Of a stretch of DNA of 42,480 nucleotides, positions 6,318 through 36,700 are shown one piece after another; within the stretch, counting starts at the first letter, position 1; the number at the start of each line of letters is the position of its first letter. The stretch comes from Omnitrophica bacterium GWA2_41_15 (GTDB taxonomy: Bacteria > Omnitrophota > Gorgyraeia > Gygaellales > UBA12090), in the NCBI GenBank assembly GCA_919902675.1, contig CAKKRH010000005.1, positions 1-42,480 on the forward strand, given 5' to 3'. The position numbers and the translations under genes are program-made. A model generated the notes under the pieces. That model worked only from the letters and a program-made list of their open reading frames with translations, did not search any database and had not been told where the DNA came from.

Positions 6318-6974
6318 TTAGAAGTTATATAATACGCCGGCTTCAAAGGTATCGCAATCATCGGCATGAATCCTGTCGCGGTGGCGCCAGTCTAAATTAA
6401 GCCGGGCTTCTTTAGCCAGCGGAATAAGCACGCCGGCAATTGCTTCTACGCGTGTTCCCCGGCCCAGGCGAAAATCATAGGTATATTCTCCAGAGATATA
6501 CCCTTTAAGGATATCTTTTCCCGGAACCAACTGATGGCTTAAACTCACTATGCTCAGGGCCTCAAGCATATCGGTATCCTTAATCACTCCCCGGTTATAC
6601 ACCGGCTCCGAACGCCACAGCTGACGCAGCTGTTCTCCTAAATAAAAGAAATCCCTCCAATTAAAACCTAATTCCACTCCGGCAGAAACCCTTTCTTTTT
6701 TACGGCGTTCTACATTATGCCGCGCTTCCACAAAAGGTATTACCTTTAAGCTGACTTCTTTGCCGGGTGAGGAATTAATCTTCTTCACCAAAAACGCCTC
6801 CAGGCGGTTGGCGTAAAAATTTTCATCCGCATGGCGGATATCATGGTTAAAAGTAAGGCTGTAGCGCAAGGGGAGCTTGGACCCCCCGGCAAAACCAAAA
6901 GAATAAGAGAAAAGCGCTATCCCTAAAACCAGCGCCGCCGTCTTTCTTATTCTTCCCGCTCGTATCAACCTCAC
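6318..6974 (-). CDS. Putative outer-membrane beta-barrel protein
   Basis: 218 aa with an N-terminal signal-like hydrophobic segment, alternating amphipathic strands and a C-terminal aromatic residue (..GVLYNF). GTG start in the track; exact start uncertain. Confidence 0.45.
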   Translation of the reverse strand: MRLIRAGRIRKTAALVLGIALFSYSFGFAGGSKLPLRYSLTFNHDIRHADENFYANRLEAFLVKKINSSPGKEVSLKVIPFVEARHNVERRKKERVSAGVELGFNWRDFFYLGEQLRQLWRSEPVYNRGVIKDTDMLEALSIVSLSHQLVPGKDILKGYISGEYTYDFRLGRGTRVEAIAGVLIPLAKEARLNLDWRHRDRIHADDCDTFEAGVLYNF

Positions 6975-7116
6975 CTCAGACTAAACCGCTTAAGAAAATT
7001 ATATTATAACAAAAATCATCTTAAAAATGTAAAAGTTATTTCTCTTATCTGAATTCCGGCTCAAGGGCAATTGAACCCCGCCTTTAGACAGATTAAACCA
7101 CGGGCTTTCTTTTATT

Positions 7117-7689
7117 TTATTTAGGGAAATCAAACTTAATTTCTACGTCTTTTTTCTCTGCTTCGGCGGCCTTAAAAAGCTCTTTCGGCTTCATCTGCAG
7201 CATCTGAGCCACCAGGGTATCCGGTATCTGGGCAATCCTGATATTATAATTATTCACCGATTCGTTATACAACTCCCTGCGGTCGGCAATCTGGCTTTCC
7301 AGATAACTTATGCGCTGCTGGAGCTGGGTGAAATTCTGGTTTGCCTTTAGGTCTGGGTAATTCTCCGAGACAGCGAACAAGGTCTTCAGGGCCCCGCTTA
7401 AGGAATTCTCCGCCTGTGAAGACTCCCCCACGGTCTTTGCCTGAAGACAGGCAGTGCGCGCGGCGGTAATTTTTTCCAGCGTTTCCCGTTCATACTTCAT
7501 ATACCCTTCGCAGACCTTGATAAGCTTCGGTATTTCATCATAGCGCTGCTTTAATAATACATCAATATTCGCCCAGGCCTTCTCAATATTGCGCGAGAGG
7601 ACAATCAGCCCATTATAAACGGCGACAAAATAAAGCGCTATCCCTACCAGCAAAAAGAACAAAACACCCAAAACAATCGCTAATATCAT
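7117..7689 (-). CDS. lemA: LemA family membrane protein
   Basis: 190 aa with an N-terminal TM helix and LemA-type conserved stretches (NGLI.L.....AWANIDVLLKQRYDEIP, YPDLKANQNF..LQ). Confidence 0.85.
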   Translation of the reverse strand: MILAIVLGVLFFLLVGIALYFVAVYNGLIVLSRNIEKAWANIDVLLKQRYDEIPKLIKVCEGYMKYERETLEKITAARTACLQAKTVGESSQAENSLSGALKTLFAVSENYPDLKANQNFTQLQQRISYLESQIADRRELYNESVNNYNIRIAQIPDTLVAQMLQMKPKELFKAAEAEKKDVEIKFDFPK

Positions 7690-7710
7690 ACTTTCCTCCC
7701 TTGTTATCTT

Positions 7711-8634
7711 CTATCCCACTAAACCCAGACGTATTAATAAATACGCCATTGATACCAAGGTCAATACCACGCCCCCAAAAACCCCCCCGATTACCTCCCA
7801 GTTCAATGTCTGGATAAGCTCCTTCTGGCTATGGTCGGAGATAATAAAAGTAGTGGCCTCGCTCCCCTGGCCGATAATCACGTCCGCGTGCTCTTCGCGC
7901 TGAGAAGCTGATTTCGCTTCTTCTTCCAGTAGCTCCTGTTCCAATTTGGCCACCGCCCAAGACCATTCCTGCCCGTCTACAGCCCCGTCTTTATTCTCAT
8001 CAATGGCCTTCATTTTTTCTTGATTGGATTTCAGCTCCATTATCCGCTGGTGCAATTTATCGTTATGATCAACCCAGTCGGTTTCTTTTTTTCGCGCGCT
8101 GCCCAACACATACACTGCCTGCTCGGGAAATATATCCCATTCTTTAAAACGCAGCGAAGAAGCAAAAAACCCGGTTTTGTGCCTTATGTTGATAGTATTC
8201 AGAAACCCTGTAAGATTATCCGGGATACTTTTCCCCATGCCGGTCCTAAATTCGTAGCTTACCTTAAGAATCAACTCCGCTGCCTGTGGCGCCACCAAAA
8301 CCCTCCCGGTGCCGTCATCTATCCAAAAGGGGCAATAAAAACTGTCTCCCTTGGCAATAGTAACCCAGGAGCCTGATTTTCCCCGGCGTTCATAGCGCTC
8401 GACCAAATAGCGGTAGGCCACGCAGTCAAAACCGCTTAACGGGCCGCGCAAGGTTTTTACCTTTCTGGCCTTGCCTGTTAATTCCACCAGCCCCATGGCC
8501 ATGCCGCGGATTGTCGAAGTGGGAATGTTCTCTATAAGCCTTTTTCGCCTTAAGCGGGTAAAGCCCCAGAAAAAAGCCCATATCCCAAATCCGAAACCAA
8601 AAGCCGCCCAACCAATATCCCTATCATCGCTCAT
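7711..8634 (-). CDS. GIDE-domain (E3-ligase-like) membrane protein
   Basis: 307 aa with N- and C-terminal TM helices and the motif IENIPTSTIRGMAMGLVELTGKA typical of bacterial GIDE proteins. Sits immediately upstream of LemA, the usual pairing. Confidence 0.6.
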   Translation of the reverse strand: MSDDRDIGWAAFGFGFGIWAFFWGFTRLRRKRLIENIPTSTIRGMAMGLVELTGKARKVKTLRGPLSGFDCVAYRYLVERYERRGKSGSWVTIAKGDSFYCPFWIDDGTGRVLVAPQAAELILKVSYEFRTGMGKSIPDNLTGFLNTINIRHKTGFFASSLRFKEWDIFPEQAVYVLGSARKKETDWVDHNDKLHQRIMELKSNQEKMKAIDENKDGAVDGQEWSWAVAKLEQELLEEEAKSASQREEHADVIIGQGSEATTFIISDHSQKELIQTLNWEVIGGVFGGVVLTLVSMAYLLIRLGLVG

Positions 8635-26372: not shown

Positions 26373-26915
26373 TCAATCCTCCAATATCCCGACTATTCTG
26401 GAATAGATTTCTTCTGTACCGTATTTTAAACATAGCGTTCTAAAATTATTGCTTTTAAAATCCATCTTGTTAATCCTGATCAAATTAATTATATCCGGCA
26501 GGTCTTTCATCTCGCGCATCTTTGGATTATATTTAATTGAATGGAGCTTCAGGGCGATCAGATTGTTTAAAGAAGGCACGATGAATCTCTTGTTCGCGAT
26601 ATTTATCTTCTCGCCGTCTTTAATAATTTTACTGAGCGTGTCCTCATCCACAAACATAAAATCAATATCCATAAGCATCAGCTGATTACTTTTAAGCCTT
26701 GTAAAAACTTCCTGGCTGTAATCAGTCTTATAGCCGGCATTTCGCAATAAGGGTAAAATTCTTTCAAAATCTTCTTTGGTTATCAGGAAATCGACATCTA
26801 AAGTCTGGCGGGTAACCTTATAATGATTAACCGCAAATCCCCCTATCAAGACACAAGACACGCCATTTTTATCGGCTATATCGGAAATCAGGTGAAATAT
26901 TGTTTCATCTTTCAT
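26373..26915 (-). CDS. Putative nucleotidyltransferase-fold protein (MNT/AbiEii-like)
   Basis: 180 aa with GG.A......R.T.DVDF in the N-terminal third, as in minimal nucleotidyltransferases. The assignment is tentative. Confidence 0.45.
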   Translation of the reverse strand: MKDETIFHLISDIADKNGVSCVLIGGFAVNHYKVTRQTLDVDFLITKEDFERILPLLRNAGYKTDYSQEVFTRLKSNQLMLMDIDFMFVDEDTLSKIIKDGEKINIANKRFIVPSLNNLIALKLHSIKYNPKMREMKDLPDIINLIRINKMDFKSNNFRTLCLKYGTEEIYSRIVGILED

Positions 26916-27096: not shown

Positions 27097-28767
27097 ATGA
27101 TTTCCCATCTCACCATTAAAAACTTTGGCCTCTTTGACCATATCACGATAGAATTCTCCAAGGGCCTGAATATCTTAACCGGAGAAACCGGCGCGGGGAA
27201 GTCCATCCTCATTGACGGGCTGCGCTATGCCCTGGGCGAACGCCTTGACCCCTCTCAAATTCGCGACCCCCAACAACCTTGCGCGGTAGAAGCTATTTTT
27301 GAAATATCGAAAAATCTGGTAAATGACTATGAAGCCCTATCTGAATTTCTCCCGGAAAAAGAAACCTCTCTGATTATCAACCGCGCCTACCTTCCTGACG
27401 GCCGTAACCGGGCCAGGATAAACGGCCTCTCGGTAACGATTGCGCGGCTCAAAGAATTAGGCAACCACCTCCTTGATTTCCACGGCCCCCACGACCATCA
27501 GATGCTCCTTTCTTCTGACGCCCATTTATCCATGCTTGACAGGCTTAGCAATATTAACGCGCCCAAAAACGAATACAGCCAGATATACCGGAAGTATCTT
27601 GAGCTTGCCGGGGAACAGGAGAAATTAAAGGAATTATCGTCGTCACGAGAAAGAGATATCGAAATCTTAAAACACCAAATCCGGGAACTAGAACAAGTTC
27701 CTCTTGAAGAAGAGAAATATACTGAATTACTGGAAAAACAAAGCAGGCTGAACAACTCCGAAAAACTCTATGAGCGCGCCGGCTGGCTCATCAACGCCAT
27801 TGAAAATGACGAATCCGGGATTTCTCAGGCTATTACCAAAGCCTTTCCCCATATACGGCTTTTAAACAATATTGACCCGGCCACCTCAGTGCTCACTGAA
27901 AACCTAAACCAGATCCAGGAAAAAAGCGATGAAATCTTATCATACCTGAGAGACTACCTGGAAAAACTCTCTTTTGAACCGCGAGAGGCAAATGAAATCA
28001 ATAAGTCTTATGATACCTACATTGAGCTTAAGCGAAAATACGGCCCCAGCTTAGACGAAGTCAGTAAATTTTACCAATCTGCCAAAGAGAAATATGATGC
28101 CCTGATTAATTTTGAGATAAACTCCGCTGAGCTGAATGAAAAAATAAGCTCCCTGCGCAAGGAATTAGCCCGGATCGCCCAAAAAATTACCAAAAAAAGA
28201 AAGGCAGCCGCCGACAGCCTCAAGGAGACAATCGAAAAGGAATTACAAGAGCTAGGGATTACGCACGCGCGGTTTGAATGCGGGATTGAAAAGGCTGAAC
28301 TTAACCCTGACGGGCAGGATAAGGTTATTTTCTATATCAGCCCAAACGCGGGAGAGGATTTAAAACCGTTAGCTGAAATTGTGTCATCGGGCGAGGCGGC
28401 ACGGCTGATGCTGGCCTTAAAGAAGGCCTTGATAAAAGTTGACCCCATACCGGTTTTGATTTTTGATGAGATAGATGCCCAGATAGGCGGGCGCTTAGGC
28501 ACTATTACCGGTAAAAAACTCAAAGAACTCTCTGTTGATAGACAGGTGATTCTCATCACCCACCTGCCCCAAATAGCCTCTTTTGCCGATACTCACTTTA
28601 AGATCTACAAAAAAATAGAAAACAACCGCACTCTAACCGCGATAGAAGAGCTTGACGCAGCCAAAAAGATAAAAGAAATAGCCAAGATGATGAGCGGAGA
28701 AAAGGAAAGCGCTATCGCCATAACCCACGCCCAGGAAATGCTCACCCAGGCAAAAAACCTGCCTTAG
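27097..28767 (+). CDS. recN: DNA repair protein RecN
   Basis: 556 aa with an SMC-like head (NILTGETGAGKSI), a long coiled coil, and C-terminal signature and Walker B (SGGEAARLMLALK, LIFDEIDAQIGG). Confidence 0.95.
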   Translation: MISHLTIKNFGLFDHITIEFSKGLNILTGETGAGKSILIDGLRYALGERLDPSQIRDPQQPCAVEAIFEISKNLVNDYEALSEFLPEKETSLIINRAYLPDGRNRARINGLSVTIARLKELGNHLLDFHGPHDHQMLLSSDAHLSMLDRLSNINAPKNEYSQIYRKYLELAGEQEKLKELSSSRERDIEILKHQIRELEQVPLEEEKYTELLEKQSRLNNSEKLYERAGWLINAIENDESGISQAITKAFPHIRLLNNIDPATSVLTENLNQIQEKSDEILSYLRDYLEKLSFEPREANEINKSYDTYIELKRKYGPSLDEVSKFYQSAKEKYDALINFEINSAELNEKISSLRKELARIAQKITKKRKAAADSLKETIEKELQELGITHARFECGIEKAELNPDGQDKVIFYISPNAGEDLKPLAEIVSSGEAARLMLALKKALIKVDPIPVLIFDEIDAQIGGRLGTITGKKLKELSVDRQVILITHLPQIASFADTHFKIYKKIENNRTLTAIEELDAAKKIKEIAKMMSGEKESAIAITHAQEMLTQAKNLP

Positions 28768-30655: not shown

Positions 30656-30952
30656 TTATGCCGGGCTCAGATAATAATTATCCCTTTGGCCTTTTCTAAA
30701 CAACTGATACCCTAATCCGGCAACCATTGCCGCGTTATCCAAATTTAATCCTTTGGCCGGGAACCAGACCCTGACCCCCGATTTTTTGGCTTCCTCTTCC
30801 ATCCGCAGGCGGAAATAATTATTTGCCGCCACCCCGCCGCCGACAACCAGGGATTTCATCCTTTTCCGCCGGCAGGCCTGGAGAGACTTTCCCACCAACA
30901 CCCTCACCACCGCCTCCTGAAACCCCGCCGCAATATCTTTTCTGAGAAAAGG
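30656..30952 (-). pseudogene. tsaD: 3' fragment of tsaD (tRNA t6A threonylcarbamoyltransferase)
   Basis: Encodes only about the last 95 residues (..RKDIAAGFQEAVVRVLVGKSLQA...LVVGGGVAANNYFR...DNAAMVAGLGY..). The reading frame runs upstream into the MITE copy at 30955 and hits TAA. There is no ATG and no N-terminal ~235 aa. Confidence 0.8.
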
Positions 30953-30954
30953 GG

Positions 30955-31034
30955 GAGAAAAGGGGTCAGAGTGATTTTATTAGCCGTCCACTTTGCCCGT
31001 TTTGTCAAGTTAAATCCCTCTGACCCCTTTTCCC
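30955..31034. mobile_element. 80-bp MITE-like element, copy A
   Basis: Terminal inverted repeats GAGAAAAGGGGTCAGAGTGATTT / AAATC(C)CTCTGACCCCTTTTCCC. Core TATTAGCCGTCCACTTTGCCCGTTTTGTCAAGTT. Confidence 0.8.
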
Positions 31035-31177: not shown

Positions 31178-32515
31178 TTATCGTTCTAAGTAAGACTTGC
31201 CAAATTTCTTATGGAACTTAGAAGGAAACTGATCTTCTTTAAGGTAAAATTTTGAGAAACGATCCTCTTTAATCCATGCGTAACTATTAAGCTTATCTTT
31301 CAGTTCTCCATATTTGGAGGGGATAGATAGTTCATCCATAACTCTCTTTACAAATGCTCGATATCTTCTCCCTACAAAATATTGCTTATATAATACGGAG
31401 GGAATAGGAAACCTTATTCCTGCATCATCACCTTCAACCTTAATACCTAAAAGCGTTGTGGGTGGAGTCAAAGTAATAAATCTTTCCTCCATACCTTTCT
31501 CTCGCAGAATATTTTTGCCAATATTTTCGATTTCCCGCACCAGCTTTGACAGTGGCTTATAATCCTCTTTAGTAATAGATTCTTGAATATTCGACAACAT
31601 TTCTCGGAGCTCTACTGTTTCCTTTTCATCCCTTATCTGAAATAGAACATCAAGGAAATCATCGCCACTCGTACTTTCACGTATTAATAACGGCAAAAAT
31701 CCTGGTAAAACGATATTACTAGCAGAATCCACTCCTCCTAATGATTTTAATGAATCACGCAACTTTCCTTGAAATCTGCCAATTCCATTAGTAAATGCCT
31801 CAGCAAAAGCTGGTCCGCTTTTAGCACCAGAATTTATACGATTAAGAAAGTCGTAAGCAAAAAAATCTCTTAATGGATGAGGCATATATGAACACTCATG
31901 TTGAGCAGCGAATACTTGATGCCATATATATTGGTTCCCTATCCATCCCATCACCGACAACATTCGTTGCACATGCTTTGATAGTTTATCCCAATTCACG
32001 CCCGCTCCGTCGCTCCCTAAGATACGTAATTGCTTTCCTAACACTTCATCAGATGGACTAGACAAAATAGCTTCAATTAACGGACTTTCTTTATCAATTC
32101 CGTGAGCACGGAAGACTAAAAAAAACTCAGAAGATGAGTATTCCCAGATAAAATCACTAAATGCATTAACCTGAAGAAAATACTCAGAGAACAAAGATCG
32201 TTCTGAACCTGCGCGAAAAGCATCTGACCATATACTCATCATAGCTGAAGAAACTTGAATTAGATCTTGATCCTCATTAGTATTAAGCGATTCAAAATGA
32301 AAAGCTTTATTTTTTAGTAAGCTTTTCCGTGCAGGAGTAAGTTCTTTCTTATAATTATCGGGAACAATTATCTGTTCATTTAGTAATACGGCTTCACAAA
32401 ATCTAGCTAAACTAACGTGTTCTATATCTAAAAGGGCCGGTTCTTTTAGTAGGGCCTTACCAAGAGTGCGCTGAACACTTGAAATAGTTGAATTATCAAT
32501 TAAAACCCTACTCAT
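31178..32515 (-). CDS. Orphan 445-aa protein, function unknown
   Basis: ATG at 32515 lies 4 nt after AGGAGG (the track start at 32536 is less likely). No signal peptide or TM and no motif I recognise. Very AT-rich. Confidence 0.6.
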   Translation of the reverse strand: MSRVLIDNSTISSVQRTLGKALLKEPALLDIEHVSLARFCEAVLLNEQIIVPDNYKKELTPARKSLLKNKAFHFESLNTNEDQDLIQVSSAMMSIWSDAFRAGSERSLFSEYFLQVNAFSDFIWEYSSSEFFLVFRAHGIDKESPLIEAILSSPSDEVLGKQLRILGSDGAGVNWDKLSKHVQRMLSVMGWIGNQYIWHQVFAAQHECSYMPHPLRDFFAYDFLNRINSGAKSGPAFAEAFTNGIGRFQGKLRDSLKSLGGVDSASNIVLPGFLPLLIRESTSGDDFLDVLFQIRDEKETVELREMLSNIQESITKEDYKPLSKLVREIENIGKNILREKGMEERFITLTPPTTLLGIKVEGDDAGIRFPIPSVLYKQYFVGRRYRAFVKRVMDELSIPSKYGELKDKLNSYAWIKEDRFSKFYLKEDQFPSKFHKKFGKSYLER

Positions 32516-32707
32516 ACAACCTCCTAACAAAACCATATCCCGCTATTTATTCGAAAAACCTAGAAGCGTCCCGTAGTTTTATTCAGGGACAGTTTCCGCT
32601 TTGGCGCTGAGACACTTTCCCGATTAATGCGGAAAACGCCACTTGCGCCAACGGTCAACCGAACGATTCACGAAACAAGCTCCCCACGGAAGGCTTTGGC
32701 TAAAAAT

Positions 32708-32814: not shown

Positions 32815-33480
32815 TTATGACCTTGAGAGTTCGGCGATTGCTTTGACATGCTCCCAAGAAGAAGCTAAGAAAATATTTGCTTGCCCAGCTTCTTTTGACG
32901 GGCTATTTGATAATACCCCGATCAATTTATCAGTTCCCTTAAGTACAACTGGCGAACCGCTAAAACCACCAGCGACCGCACCTGTTATTTGGATATTTTT
33001 TCTTACTCCTGCATGACGTAAAGCAGCACCAATCACTCCCTCTGCATATGTTGGCGCGTGTGTGGAGTTCAGCAACTGTTGACCAAGCGGAAAACCAGCA
33101 TATCCAACGGGTTCACCTACCCCTGGATTGGCATTAACCAAAACCAGGCCGTCTTGTGATTCTTTATCAATAAAATCCTGGGGAACTTCAGCAAGCCGCA
33201 ATATGGATAAATCGTGGTCCAAATCGATACAGCTCACTACTGCCCTGCTATATTTTCCCATATTCCCCACCACCAGCAATCCTATCAATTCAATCGGAGC
33301 TCCTAATAAATTTTCAACAACATGTGCACAAGTAATTAGCACTTTGTAATCTTTTAACCAAAACGCTGTTGCAATTACATCGAGCCCCTCGATAAATGCT
33401 TTTCCTTGTGATGGTTGAAACTTCGGTCTTAAAGTTCCAATGGCACGTACAGCTTTATATACAAGTGGATTATTTTCCAC
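32815..33480 (-). CDS. Cytoplasmic trypsin-fold (S1/Trypsin_2-like) serine protease
   Basis: 221 aa with no signal peptide. Catalytic triad candidates are H53 (TCAHVV), D90 (DHDLSILRL) and S174 (GGFSGSPVV). GTG start overlaps the upstream gene by 11 nt. Confidence 0.8.
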   Translation of the reverse strand: MENNPLVYKAVRAIGTLRPKFQPSQGKAFIEGLDVIATAFWLKDYKVLITCAHVVENLLGAPIELIGLLVVGNMGKYSRAVVSCIDLDHDLSILRLAEVPQDFIDKESQDGLVLVNANPGVGEPVGYAGFPLGQQLLNSTHAPTYAEGVIGAALRHAGVRKNIQITGAVAGGFSGSPVVLKGTDKLIGVLSNSPSKEAGQANIFLASSWEHVKAIAELSRS

Positions 33481-33739
33481 ATGACACCTTACCTTCTGCT
33501 ACTGCGATTCTATTGAGATGGAAGTGAACGACGAGGTTTACTGCGGATCGCTTTCCCTCAGTGCTACTCATTTTGTATTTGTTGAGCTTACGAATACATT
33601 CATCTAAAGCCAGGTTTAATTTCAGCGCTTCCTCAAACTTTATTTTCAAGTTTAGCACCTTGGTATCTCCACTCACCTTGGACTTTTCAGGGCTATATTC
33701 TGATATTTCACAAGCCCCAAAACTAAAAGTCTTCTCCAT
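33470..33739 (-). CDS. 89-aa protein, function unknown, translationally coupled to the protease
   Basis: ATG at 33739 lies 5 nt after AGGAGG and 10 nt after the methyltransferase stop codon. No recognisable motif. Confidence 0.55.
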   Translation of the reverse strand: MEKTFSFGACEISEYSPEKSKVSGDTKVLNLKIKFEEALKLNLALDECIRKLNKYKMSSTEGKRSAVNLVVHFHLNRIAVAEGKVSCGK

Positions 33740-33749
33740 ATTTACCTCC

Positions 33750-36700
33750 TTAAGTTGCCGATGCTATCTTTTTATAAGCATCAAGTGTGGCGTCTTTAAC
33801 ATTTTGCGGAACGATCAGAAAAGTGGCTAAAATATGGGCAAACTCATCCTCGGATACCTCATATAGATGCGCTATTATCCCATCGAGTTCCGCTCTAATC
33901 TTGATGCGCTCTTCTGAATTGGTTACGCCGTCTTTATGACTTTTTAGTCCCGCTACTTTCCCTAACTCATTAAACTCGGGTTCAGTGCATACCAACTTAG
34001 CAACCAGCTTGGCGATTTTTATAAATGTTTTATCCTTATCGGTTAAGCGCGGGATAGGCAGTTGATAAATAAAAAACATATTGATATTCGTGGTTACTTT
34101 TTGCCTCAGAAACCAATCGATAACAAAAGAGTTAAATAACCCTGTGCAATAAAGCTGAGTTAATTCATCAAGGTTATCGCACATATTAAGGGAATTACCT
34201 GTAAAAGAGGGCGGGATAATCGTACACACCAAAGTACGTTCATTCGTATTGGAAGCTATTGATCGATAGGCAAGGCGGTATTTCTGATACCCCAGCAACT
34301 GTCCTTTGTCAGGCGTCCTACCCAAAAGAGCTGCTCTGCCCTTTTTCTCATTCACCCAGAAGCGCGGGACTGAAAGATTAGACTGAAACTGCCACATCAT
34401 TTTTCCTTCAAGCAACTGAATATTCCCGTTCCCTTGAGATGTCTTAAATAAACTACTGTCATTCGTCATATCAAACTCTCTGGTAACACGAAAACTCCAA
34501 CCATTCTGTATTTCGTCGCCCAATAAAGGGAATTGAAGCATTTTTTCAGCGATTTCTACATCTGCCGATTCCTTAAACTCCATTACAGAAAGCGAATCAG
34601 GAGAAAGACGCCGTACCAGATTTATATTAATTTTAACTGACCCTTCCTGGGGAAAACCATCAAGCTCCTCTACATCATGACGCATAAATGCCGCAGGGAA
34701 AGAATCGGTTTTTAGGCCTGTTTCAAAAGTCAATACAACAAACTTGAAGCTCCTGTGTACCCCTTCAAATATCTCCTTCCGATTTTCGAAACAAAATAAG
34801 CCAGTCAACTGTGTTTCCGCGAATAACATCTCCCGTAGTTGCTTTGACCCCAGATCGGTATAAATCCCGCTCGGAATAACGATTCCGCAGTAACCGCCCT
34901 TACGAAGCAGATTAAAGCACTGCTCAGTGAAAAGCTTATAGAGATTAATATCTGTTCCTACCTTCTTACCGTCTACAATGCTAATTTGATTTTTATACTG
35001 AGGGGCGGAACGAAAATAAGCACTAACATGCGGGTATTTGTTGAGATACTCAAACCATGCTTTTCTTATATCATGATCCTTCAAAAGTTTTTCCTGCTCT
35101 TCCTCAAAGTCCTTAATAGTCATTTTCTTCTTGCTTACTAAATCAGAATACTGCTCAAAAAACTCCTTGGCATTGGGCTTAAATATCTCCCACGGCGGAT
35201 TGGTAATTATCGCATCAAAACCACCACCTTGACCTATAATTTCATCAAACTCGAAACCCCAATGAAAAGGTTTTAACGCCTGTATGTCCTCTATACGCAG
35301 AGGACGCTTAATTGTTTTTCCTTCGCACTTTTCTTTTTCATCCCATGCTGCCTGCTCATATTTAATCTCTAAATGATGGAACTCATCGAGAATAATTGAA
35401 TTAAGCGTCTCAACCGCGGATTGTTTCTGCGCAGTAATCTGATCACGCAATGACCGTAAATCATCCGCATAATCTGTAGCATGACGGTATAGCTTAATCA
35501 ATCTATTCTTTTCTTGAAGTATACGGTTATATTTCTGTTGGCTACGTTCAGCAAGAAATGCAGCTTGAGCATCTTTCTTGCCTGGCGATTCTTTTACATC
35601 AAACAACAAACTCATCTGCCCAGAATCTTGGTCTTTCTTTTTTGTCTGTTGCTTTTTAGCAGGATCTGCCTGATTTCTCTCAAAAGCGGAAGCATCCACA
35701 CGAATCAAGCCAATTAGAGAATTACCTGCCTGAATGTTAAAATCGATATTGGGAAGCGGCTCAAGATCTTCTACAGAATTCGCCGCTGCTACCAAAGCCA
35801 AGAATAAGCGTAATTTGGCTATTTCCACGGCCTCATCCATAATATCAACACCAAAAAGGTTATCGGTGATAATCGCTTTCTTGATATAGTAACCCGAGCT
35901 GGGATGACTGTCTTCAATGTCTTTAAGCCACTTGGTGAGGTTTTTGTCTCCTAAGAACTTAATCTTGCCTATCAACGCAGAATAAACGCCAATAAGAGAC
36001 TTCATAGCCGCTACCAGGAAAGCGCCAGATCCACAGGCGGGATCCAAAATACTCACTTCAGGCAGGATATCAAATAGAAGCCGCTTACAGAGGTGAGTAT
36101 CTAAATTAAGTAAGAGATCTCCGATGGTTTCAAACTGTCGACTTGCCACCGCTCCTGGAATCCCTGGAGTGTTCACCCGATCAAGCACGAGATGCTGAAT
36201 AGTCTTTTCACATAGGTATTCAGTAATCTCGGGGCGGGTATAATAGGCGCCGAATGCCTTCTGATTGATGTATTTTTCAAATATGTAACCCAGAACATCT
36301 GGATTGATTTCATTATCCTCTCCACCTGGGGTATCATTAAGATTCCAAGAATATCGTTGGAATAGATTCAAAACATTCTCAAAAGCCTTATCAGGGATAT
36401 GGATTTTAGGATATTTAAGTTCAACGATGTGAGGCAAAAATAACCCGCCGTTTAGATACTTGATTTTACCAAGTAATTTGAGTGCCTGAGAGGATCTCTG
36501 GTTTTCTGGCTTGGCAAATCCTTCGAAGAATAAAAGTATGAGAAAATCGCTAAAAAATAGGTTTTTCCCTCTCACCTTGCTTTCTGCAAGCTTAGTCTGC
36601 AAATAATCCAGATTCCCGTTATCAAGGAAGCGCTTCTTCTGCAGAAAATAGATAAACATTAAGCGATTTAATAAAACCGAGGCATACCAATGACGCTCTC

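Follow-up and report, generated by a model that had tools for sequence, protein, structure and literature searches.

In the 42,480-nucleotide (nt) stretch of Omnitrophica bacterium GWA2_41_15 DNA analyzed here (contig CAKKRH010000005.1; the whole stretch is called the window), a gene for a small protein of 89 amino acids (aa) is followed, with an overlap, by a gene for a 221-aa cytoplasmic serine protease. Both stand at the end of an operon that resembles a restriction-modification (R-M) system. A preliminary description, made from the sequence alone, had presented the two genes as a toxin-antitoxin-like arrangement. According to the best reading of the data reported here, the small gene and the protease gene are two independently mobile accessory cassettes that are neighbors only in this lineage and were joined recently. 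They are accessory genes embedded in restriction operons, which is a known kind of arrangement and not a new type of system. In the literature that we found, neither family has been described, and PADLOC contains no more than distant models of the protease domain.

The Small Gene and the Protease Gene Overlap but Do Not Co-occur

The operon has the order (DUF3800)-HKD nuclease/SNF2 helicase-N6-adenine methyltransferase-small protein-protease-hairpin (Table 1). Gaps of 10 nt separate the methyltransferase gene from the helicase gene upstream and from the small open reading frame (ORF) downstream. The location of the two genes at the end of an R-M-like operon was thereby confirmed, as were the AGGAGG motif 5 nt before the ATG of the small ORF and the 11-nt overlap with the GTG start of the protease gene, all on the minus strand. 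A Shine-Dalgarno-like motif, GGTAAGG, lies 6 nt upstream of this GTG. The small gene and the protease gene are co-transcribed and translationally coupled.

For analysis of co-occurrence, 80 metagenome loci (numbered with the prefix L, as are all other loci) were collected with the protease profile at 36-82% identity, and 12 genome loci were collected by scanning genome contigs with the small-protein profile. The respective partner was sought by tblastn and with a profile hidden Markov model (HMM) in six frames at E ≤ 1. A homologue of the small protein was found in none of the 80 protease loci, and the protease was found in none of the 12 small-protein loci. Eleven further loci (L102-L112) were obtained by look-up of exact proteins, and in the precomputed Pfam listings for these no Trypsin_2 gene was called beside the small gene. 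Outside the window, both genes were found together in just two settings: in near-identical contigs that belong to the same organism, recovered from groundwater and other metagenomes (L093-L099), and in L101. The latter encodes a protease with 89% and a small protein with 97% amino acid identity; its two genes have kept the 11-nt overlap, and they are preceded by a different upstream gene than in the window. In L013, at 82% protease identity, the upstream gene is already different. L102 shares its upstream gene with L101 and carries a small gene that is 85% identical, but no protease follows. The small gene therefore stays while the gene behind it changes.

A different small partner was not evident either: all-against-all clustering of neighboring genes yielded no non-homologous conserved small ORF upstream of other proteases, and the small clusters that recurred near proteases were only antisense ORFs inside the protease gene. 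In many R-M-embedded cases there is no room for a partner, because the protease gene starts 2-14 nt after hsdS or hsdM. If the protease depended on the small protein for an antidote or adaptor, it would not be without it in nearly every lineage, and a dedicated inhibitor- or adaptor-protease module is thus unsupported. The model of an obligate pair was rejected on the basis of the partner's absence from the small-protein and protease loci scanned. What stands of the toxin-antitoxin-like arrangement is a small upstream gene that overlaps its neighbor within one operon; the two families do not co-occur. A neat overlap between a small ORF and an enzyme gene is insufficient to call a toxin-antitoxin-like module. 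A phage or plasmid origin was not indicated, as neither protein was matched in IMG/VR pattern scans, INPHARED phages, or PLSDB plasmids.

The Protease Is a Cytoplasmic Enzyme of HtrA-like Fold

The protease matched the Pfam family Trypsin_2 (PF13365) with 42.9 bits, above the curated cut-off of 27.6. The catalytic triad His53, Asp90, and Ser174, already noted as intact, is invariant in 26 of 26 aligned homologues and in all 69 full-length family members. Between the window and L101, 84 codons of the protease ORF differ by synonymous changes only and 26 by non-synonymous changes, which supports this ORF as a real gene. The N-terminal 30 residues are hydrophilic (mean Kyte-Doolittle value -0.21), and the sole hydrophobic maximum is an internal core strand. 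By hydropathy, the protein has neither an export signal nor a transmembrane-like N-terminal segment, in agreement with the preliminary description. The AlphaFold model (predicted local distance difference test score (pLDDT) 84) was matched best in the PDB by the protease domains of MucD, HtrA1, DegS, and DegQ (E ~1e-9, template modeling score ~0.64, probability 1.00), and a sequence profile search of the PDB also retrieved HtrA.

The protease resembles HtrA, DegP, DegS, DegQ, and MucD (PA clan, family S1C) in the double β-barrel fold, in the His-Asp-Ser order, and in an active-site loop of the form GGxSGxP. The residue at the S1 pocket position (Ala168) is small or hydrophobic, as in the HtrA family. 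The protein differs from the HtrA family proper in that it comprises only 221 aa and has no PDZ domain, signal peptide, or membrane anchor; no PDZ match was obtained and the chain stops 47 residues past Ser174. Identity to the solved HtrA proteins amounts to only 17-20%. The members of the family, of ~220-245 aa, are likewise cytoplasmic, HtrA-like, and devoid of PDZ domains. They share a strongly conserved, family-specific N-terminal segment of ~35 residues and are distributed patchily across phyla.

Among the PADLOC models, those for RT-Protease (class XI; 6.5e-13), PDC-M35A (7e-7), and protease-type LmuA (1e-4) gave weak to moderate matches, which shows that similar trypsin-fold domains are used as defense effectors. 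The matches cover the protease domain only, and neither a reverse transcriptase nor LmuB nor a PDC-M35 partner is present in the window.

Protease Genes Recur inside Restriction Operons

R-M genes were labeled around the protease in 23 of 79 loci, the labels stemming partly from locally iterated HMMs. A conservative script count found an R-M gene directly adjacent in 13 of the 59 protease loci with at least 1.5 kb of flanking sequence. Immediately upstream of the protease gene, Methylase_S was found in 11 of 63 cases, N6_Mtase in 3, and N6_N4_Mtase in 2, in addition to EcoRI and D12 methylases. The genes immediately downstream (65 cases) comprised HSDR_N (6), Methylase_S (5), ResIII (4), Mrr, Shedu SduA_C (2), and ThsB TIR (1).

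The order hsdM-hsdS-protease-hsdR, with gaps of 2-14 nt, recurred in seven loci (L021, L044, L051, L065, L067, L075, and L082), and one locus had the order hsdM-protease-hsdR (L078). In split type IIG-like systems, the protease gene lies between the genes for the methyltransferase and the S subunit (L014, L017, and L048). In L035, an N6_N4 methyltransferase gene and the protease gene are followed by a 971-aa gene, possibly of a type III system. The window's own protease subclade is linked to R-M genes (L014, L015/L016, and L017), and one of its members, L016, is the only other protease locus that carries the HKD-SNF2 plus methyltransferase operon of the window. At the place where the window has the 89-aa gene, between methyltransferase and protease, L016 (7010-7960) and L015 (503-1453) contain an unrelated 316-aa ORF without any family match. 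In a neighbor-joining tree, R-M-linked proteases were scattered over at least six clades, the window's clade included. Other long protease loci contained GIY-YIG, GmrSD_N, HNH, EcoRI methylase, and AAA_15/21 genes amid ordinary genes.

In one protease locus, L039, a serpin gene (6696-7910) is situated ~300 nt downstream of the protease homologue and was considered as a possible inhibitor. The serpin has a signal peptide, and its gene neighbors that of a large secreted glycosidase; a relation to the cytoplasmic protease is therefore improbable.

The Small Protein Belongs to a Large Family with Many Neighbors

A word-indexed search returned 81 homologues of the small protein, and an exhaustive search returned 368 representative clusters (50% identity) at E ≤ 1e-3. 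These are stand-alone proteins of 85-125 aa, typically ~87 aa. Their conserved core comprises Gly8, Cys10, Pro17, Asn30, the motif FEEALKLN at positions 35-42, and a Lys/Arg-rich loop. Comparison of the small ORF between the window and L101 revealed 30 codons with synonymous changes only as opposed to 3 with non-synonymous changes. Together with the number of clusters this showed that the ORF is a real gene, and the pattern of codon changes indicates that the protein is under purifying selection. Longer matches (P0208, P0229, P0340, and P0256) were inspected as possible domain fusions and discarded, as they were devoid of informative Pfam domains or seemed chimeric.

The AlphaFold model of the small protein has a pLDDT of 88.7 and a predicted β-β-β-α-α-β-β topology. 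Foldseek found nothing usable for this fold in the PDB (best E 1.7) or in BFVD (best E 0.3). No Pfam or PADLOC family was matched, including those with a helix-turn-helix (HTH), NCBIfam gave only a sub-threshold thiopeptide match, and the profile search of the PDB gave a chance match only. Neither this profile search nor Foldseek against the PDB and BFVD returned any antitoxin or inhibitor fold.

The 12 small-protein loci span Bacteroidota, Chlorobi, Planctomycetota, Delta-, Beta-, and Gammaproteobacteria, Actinobacteria, and Patescibacteria. Among these and the further loci, the small gene comes first, with overlapping stop and start codons, in an HKD-SNF2 plus methyltransferase operon resembling that of the window (L104/L105). 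It is also first in L109, upstream of an SNF2 gene, and in L002, upstream of hsdR. In the window and in L106, L103, and L012, it occupies an internal or terminal position. The gene order in L106-L108 is HsdR-215 aa-small-AbiGi. In L103, the small gene comes after a TIR_2 gene, beside an IIG-like R-M system and SIR2, and in L110/L111 after DUF4145, beside a type II R-M system. In L102, it precedes a DUF262/GmrSD-like gene that was recognized by eye from a 33-residue N-terminal fragment (MAKIQDVIKERHKYKVDLTYQRPDGAW). Other small genes follow DprA-like and dCTP-deaminase-like genes, and yet others adjoin integrase, or OLD and transposase genes. The link to superfamily 2 translocase-nucleases in five independent contexts, the window included, suggests that the small gene belongs with the R-M-like operon and not with the protease.

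The small protein is probably a generic, putatively nucleic-acid-binding regulator or adaptor of defense operons and not a protease-specific partner, a role that fits its size, charge, and promiscuity. In being small and basic, and often encoded first or directly upstream of restriction genes (L002, L104/L105, L109, and L102), the family resembles the C proteins and RptR. Unlike these, it also occurs downstream of effector genes, and its predicted fold differs: C proteins are HTH proteins, and RptR is an all-α, four-helix protein of 79 aa that forms a dimer (PMC12255303). In view of the all-α structure of RptR, the lack of an HTH match, and the mixed α/β prediction, identity of the small protein with RptR or a C protein was rejected.

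Proposed Role of the Protease and Comparison with Known Systems

The position and orientation of the protease gene match those of known R-M-embedded accessory genes, and for this reason we favor the protease as a second-line effector or regulator that operates next to restriction. As to activity, trigger, substrate, and regulation, we infer that it would be co-expressed with the restriction complex and would serve as a second-line effector or as a regulator of restriction. Following a PrrC-like logic, it would be kept quiet while restriction works, and it would cleave host or phage proteins once restriction is inhibited or overwhelmed. Taken as a whole, this account of two independent accessory cassettes on an R-M-like operon, with the protease as back-up effector or regulator and the small protein as regulator or adaptor, is put forward tentatively, at a probability that we place slightly below one half. 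If the protease acts on restriction subunits or phage anti-restriction proteins, proteolysis would be added to the ways in which restriction is backed up or controlled.

The best available analogy for the protease is PrrC, a latent effector that guards a restriction enzyme: its gene lies inside a type IC locus, and the protein detects when the restriction enzyme is inhibited (PMC12707154). Like prrC in EcoprrI (hsdM-hsdS-prrC-hsdR), many genes for protease homologues sit in the same orientation between hsdS and hsdR. Unlike the protease, PrrC is an ABC-ATPase/HEPN-type tRNA nuclease, and the two proteins have no relation in sequence or fold. The hsdS-hsdR junction is a hotspot for embedded defense genes; DarTG resides there, and an M48 peptidase gene stands at the end of a type I R-M island (PMC12255303). 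This RptR-RMS-DarTG-M48 island of enteropathogenic Escherichia coli offers a parallel to the window, as a conserved peptidase gene closes an R-M operon that begins to resemble it further through its embedded accessory genes and its small leader (PMC12255303). The M48 enzyme is a zinc metallopeptidase of another catalytic class and fold, and its likeness to the protease is positional only. Genes embedded in type I R-M, BREX, and DISARM loci are generally enriched for defense functions (bioRxiv 10.1101/2024.01.29.577857). R-M-embedded genes have repeatedly proved to have defense or counter-counter-defense functions, as exemplified by PrrC, DarTG, and the "guilt by embedding" candidates. In none of the literature that we found is a cytoplasmic serine protease described as recurring at the hsdS-hsdR junction as well as in systems of the type IIG-like and HKD-SNF2 kinds.

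A further-reaching version of this account, which we regard as rather unlikely, holds that two new and widespread families of defense accessory proteins are present, the protease being a proteolytic counterpart of PrrC and the 87-aa protein a plug-in leader regulator or adaptor of new fold. A latent protease would then be held by, or co-expressed with, several types of translocating restriction enzymes. A block of restriction would release its activity, or else its role would be to tune the nuclease subunit. The 87-aa protein would be a module that can be placed ahead of many unrelated effectors of restriction and abortive infection, and the window would represent a case in which both families were plugged into one HKD-SNF2/methyltransferase system. 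With its large family, confident model, lack of a known fold, and many effector neighbors, the small protein is a tractable target in the search for a new defense regulator or adaptor.

Several points weigh against the favored account. The link of the protease to R-M proteins is one of gene neighborhood, and its 221-aa protease domain has no obvious sensor module. R-M genes lie beside it in only ~30% of the loci and other contexts include housekeeping neighbors, whereas PrrC is almost exclusively R-M-embedded (bioRxiv 10.1101/2024.01.29.577857). In a Kerfeldbacteria locus (L113, 6001-6738), a homologue with 58% identity and a ~25-aa N-terminal extension common to its whole clade is encoded between PPDK and a 120-aa gene that is followed by dnaG and rpoD, a setting unrelated to defense. 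The neighbor counts given above are raw, without a formal background model, and they are lower bounds because many contigs are short. Binding of DNA or RNA by the small protein was guessed solely from its basic isoelectric point (pI) and the conserved Lys/Arg-rich loop. Finally, the 11-nt overlap kept in L101 behind another upstream gene shows that the two genes can travel as a unit, as a functional pair would.

The arrangement in L101 means that the pair was moved or kept together at least once. Inheritance or transfer as a unit, the overlap itself, and the Shine-Dalgarno-like motif within the small ORF would all be in line with a functional pair specific to this lineage, in which the 89-aa protein came to serve the protease as an inhibitor, antitoxin-like partner, adaptor, or substrate and the coupled genes act as one module. 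The small family is, moreover, often encoded beside potentially toxic enzymes (TIR, dCTP-deaminase-like, DprA/SLOG-like, AbiGi, and nucleases) and in this resembles mix-and-match antitoxins. Such a pair is nevertheless improbable, and it is only in this lineage-specific form that the pair proposed in the preliminary description survives. There is no co-occurrence beyond the closest relatives of the window, and in many lineages the protease gene is found by itself, closely fitted between hsdS and hsdR, so that this partner is not needed. L102 has retained the small gene with the GmrSD-like gene in the place of the protease, and the small protein is basic and did not match any antitoxin or inhibitor fold.

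By analogy with another route of control, the protease may be a built-in factor for restriction alleviation or establishment, degrading the translocating nuclease subunit (HsdR, HKD-SNF2, or Res) whenever the latter attacks host DNA that is unmodified. In mobile R-M systems it would take the part that ClpXP plays for EcoKI. Degradation of HsdR by ClpXP is an established control of type IA and IB systems (PMC12707154), and a type I R-M island likewise has a peptidase of another kind, M48, as its conserved companion (PMC12255303). The restriction systems with which the protease is mainly associated are ATP-dependent and translocating (type I, HKD-SNF2, and Res-type), which fits this idea, as does the origin of many family members from groundwater and candidate-phyla bacteria with reduced genomes. 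The R subunits encoded beside the protease come from unrelated families, however, so a single specific substrate is hard to imagine, and many protease loci have no R-M gene nearby. We consider this explanation to have a small probability, below that of the lineage-specific pair.

An ordinary cytoplasmic housekeeping or quality-control protease, present like the small gene by chance insertion into a recombination hotspot and without a role in defense, is less probable again, at a slim chance: the Kerfeldbacteria locus, glycosidase, chaperonin, or Hsp70 genes near several protease genes, and the known hotspot at the hsdS-hsdR junction (PMC12255303) are matched against embedding in the same orientation with gaps of 2-20 nt in at least six separate clades and four R-M types, which excludes chance, against the patchy phyletic spread typical of mobile accessory genes, and against the location of the operon in a region of ~6 points lower guanine-plus-cytosine (GC) content than the left part of the window, together with other defense-type genes. 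A self-contained abortive-infection protease that merely hitch-hikes is a further alternative to the back-up effector or regulator favored here.

The Host Operon and Its Genomic Setting

The features of the operon and its surroundings are compiled in Table 1. The HKD-SNF2 protein is presumed to be the restriction/translocase subunit of the R-M-like system. It contains the motifs HAK...GSSN of a PLD/HKD nuclease and GLGKT and DESH of an SNF2 helicase, and it was matched by the PADLOC model 'HKD+Snf2' C3a139 (6.9e-51) in addition to DrmD-like models. The Eco57I/MmeI-type methyltransferase contains DPACGSG as motif I and NPPW as motif IV and was matched by the PADLOC model REase_MTase_IIG at 3.8e-123.

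Table 1. Coordinates of the features discussed, in the numbering of the 42,480-nt window
Feature	Position	Strand	Remarks
DUF3800 gene, 261 aa	40943..41728	-	Pfam PF12686, E 5.7e-16; possible first gene of the transcription unit
PLD(HKD)-nuclease + SNF2 helicase, 1126 aa	37288..40668	-	Pfam PLDc_2, SNF2-rel_dom, Helicase_C, RE_NgoFVII
Type IIG-like N6-adenine DNA methyltransferase with target-recognition regions, 1175 aa	33750..37277	-	Pfam Eco57I 7e-22, MmeI_Mtase, N6_Mtase
AGGAGG ribosome-binding site	33745..33750	-	5 nt before ATG, abutting the methyltransferase stop codon; read from sequence
89-aa ORF	33470..33739	-	ATG start; basic (pI 9.2), motif FEEALKLN
Overlap of 11 nt, end of small ORF and GTG start of protease gene	33470..33480	-	Read from sequence; same overlap in L101
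Cytoplasmic HtrA-like serine protease, 221 aa	32815..33480	-	GTG start; Pfam Trypsin_2; H53, D90, S174
Perfect 21-nt inverted repeat, 34-nt loop	32710..32785	.	3' of the protease stop; on the minus strand, TCATTTTT (T-run) comes after
Second copy of the palindromic element	30957..31032	.	Opposite orientation to the first copy

In combining an HKD-SNF2 protein with an N6-methyltransferase, the operon resembles the type-2 BREX-related (BR) systems, which are centered on a DUF499 ATPase and have an N-terminal HKD endonuclease fused to a Swi2/Snf2 helicase and a large N6-adenine methyltransferase as effector and modifier (PMC12839542). It also resembles class 1 DISARM, for which DrmA, DrmB, and DrmC are required: the DrmD and DrmMI models match these two proteins of the window. 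Membership in either group was rejected, because DUF499, DrmA, DrmB, and DrmC were absent from the window, L104, and L016.

On a 444-kb contig of the same organism (L093, 1-5731), the HKD-SNF2 and methyltransferase genes were called as fragments, and the small gene and the protease gene are intact. The fragmentation is due either to indels in a long-read assembly or to true decay of the R-M genes with both accessory genes kept.

The DUF3800 gene is situated 274 nt upstream of the helicase gene. In another locus, one with an IIG-like methyltransferase and S subunit (L048, 2006-2848), a DUF3800 gene likewise stands immediately upstream of the gene for a protease homologue, and such systems may have in DUF3800 a third accessory gene that recurs.

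The inverted repeat behind the protease gene is likely the terminator or the boundary of the operon. It was missed by a standard terminator scan because its loop is longer than 8 nt. The repeat is one of two copies in the window of a palindromic element of ~76 nt with perfect 21-nt arms (GAAAAGGGGTCAGAGTGATTT) and a 34-nt loop; the opposite orientation of the copies follows from their loops, which are mutually reverse complementary. The element was present in contigs of the same species only, and it may be a terminator, an element similar to miniature inverted-repeat transposable elements, or the border of a cassette that is invertible or was inserted. The two copies flank a 452-aa ORF (31178-32536, minus strand) that lies just past the end of the operon and has no family match in Pfam, PADLOC, or NCBIfam. 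This ORF was ruled out as a partner, as its homologues occurred in same-species contigs only and had no association with the protease elsewhere.

The GC content falls from ~47% in the left part of the window to ~41% in the right part, from ~22 kb to 42,480. Four transfer RNA genes are located in the part of higher GC content, at 13.5-21 kb. The part of lower GC content also holds genes for an AbiEii/NTP_transf_5-like nucleotidyltransferase (26373-26915) and an SMC_N/AAA_15 ATPase (27097-28767), and in these respects the right half of the window resembles a defense island. An 84-aa ORF (30656-30910, minus strand) matched TsaD at no more than its C-terminal end (profile positions 202-263 of 264), and the same fragment was seen in L093-L095. 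It looks like the remnant of a truncated tsaD gene, suggesting that the island was inserted into or beside tsaD.

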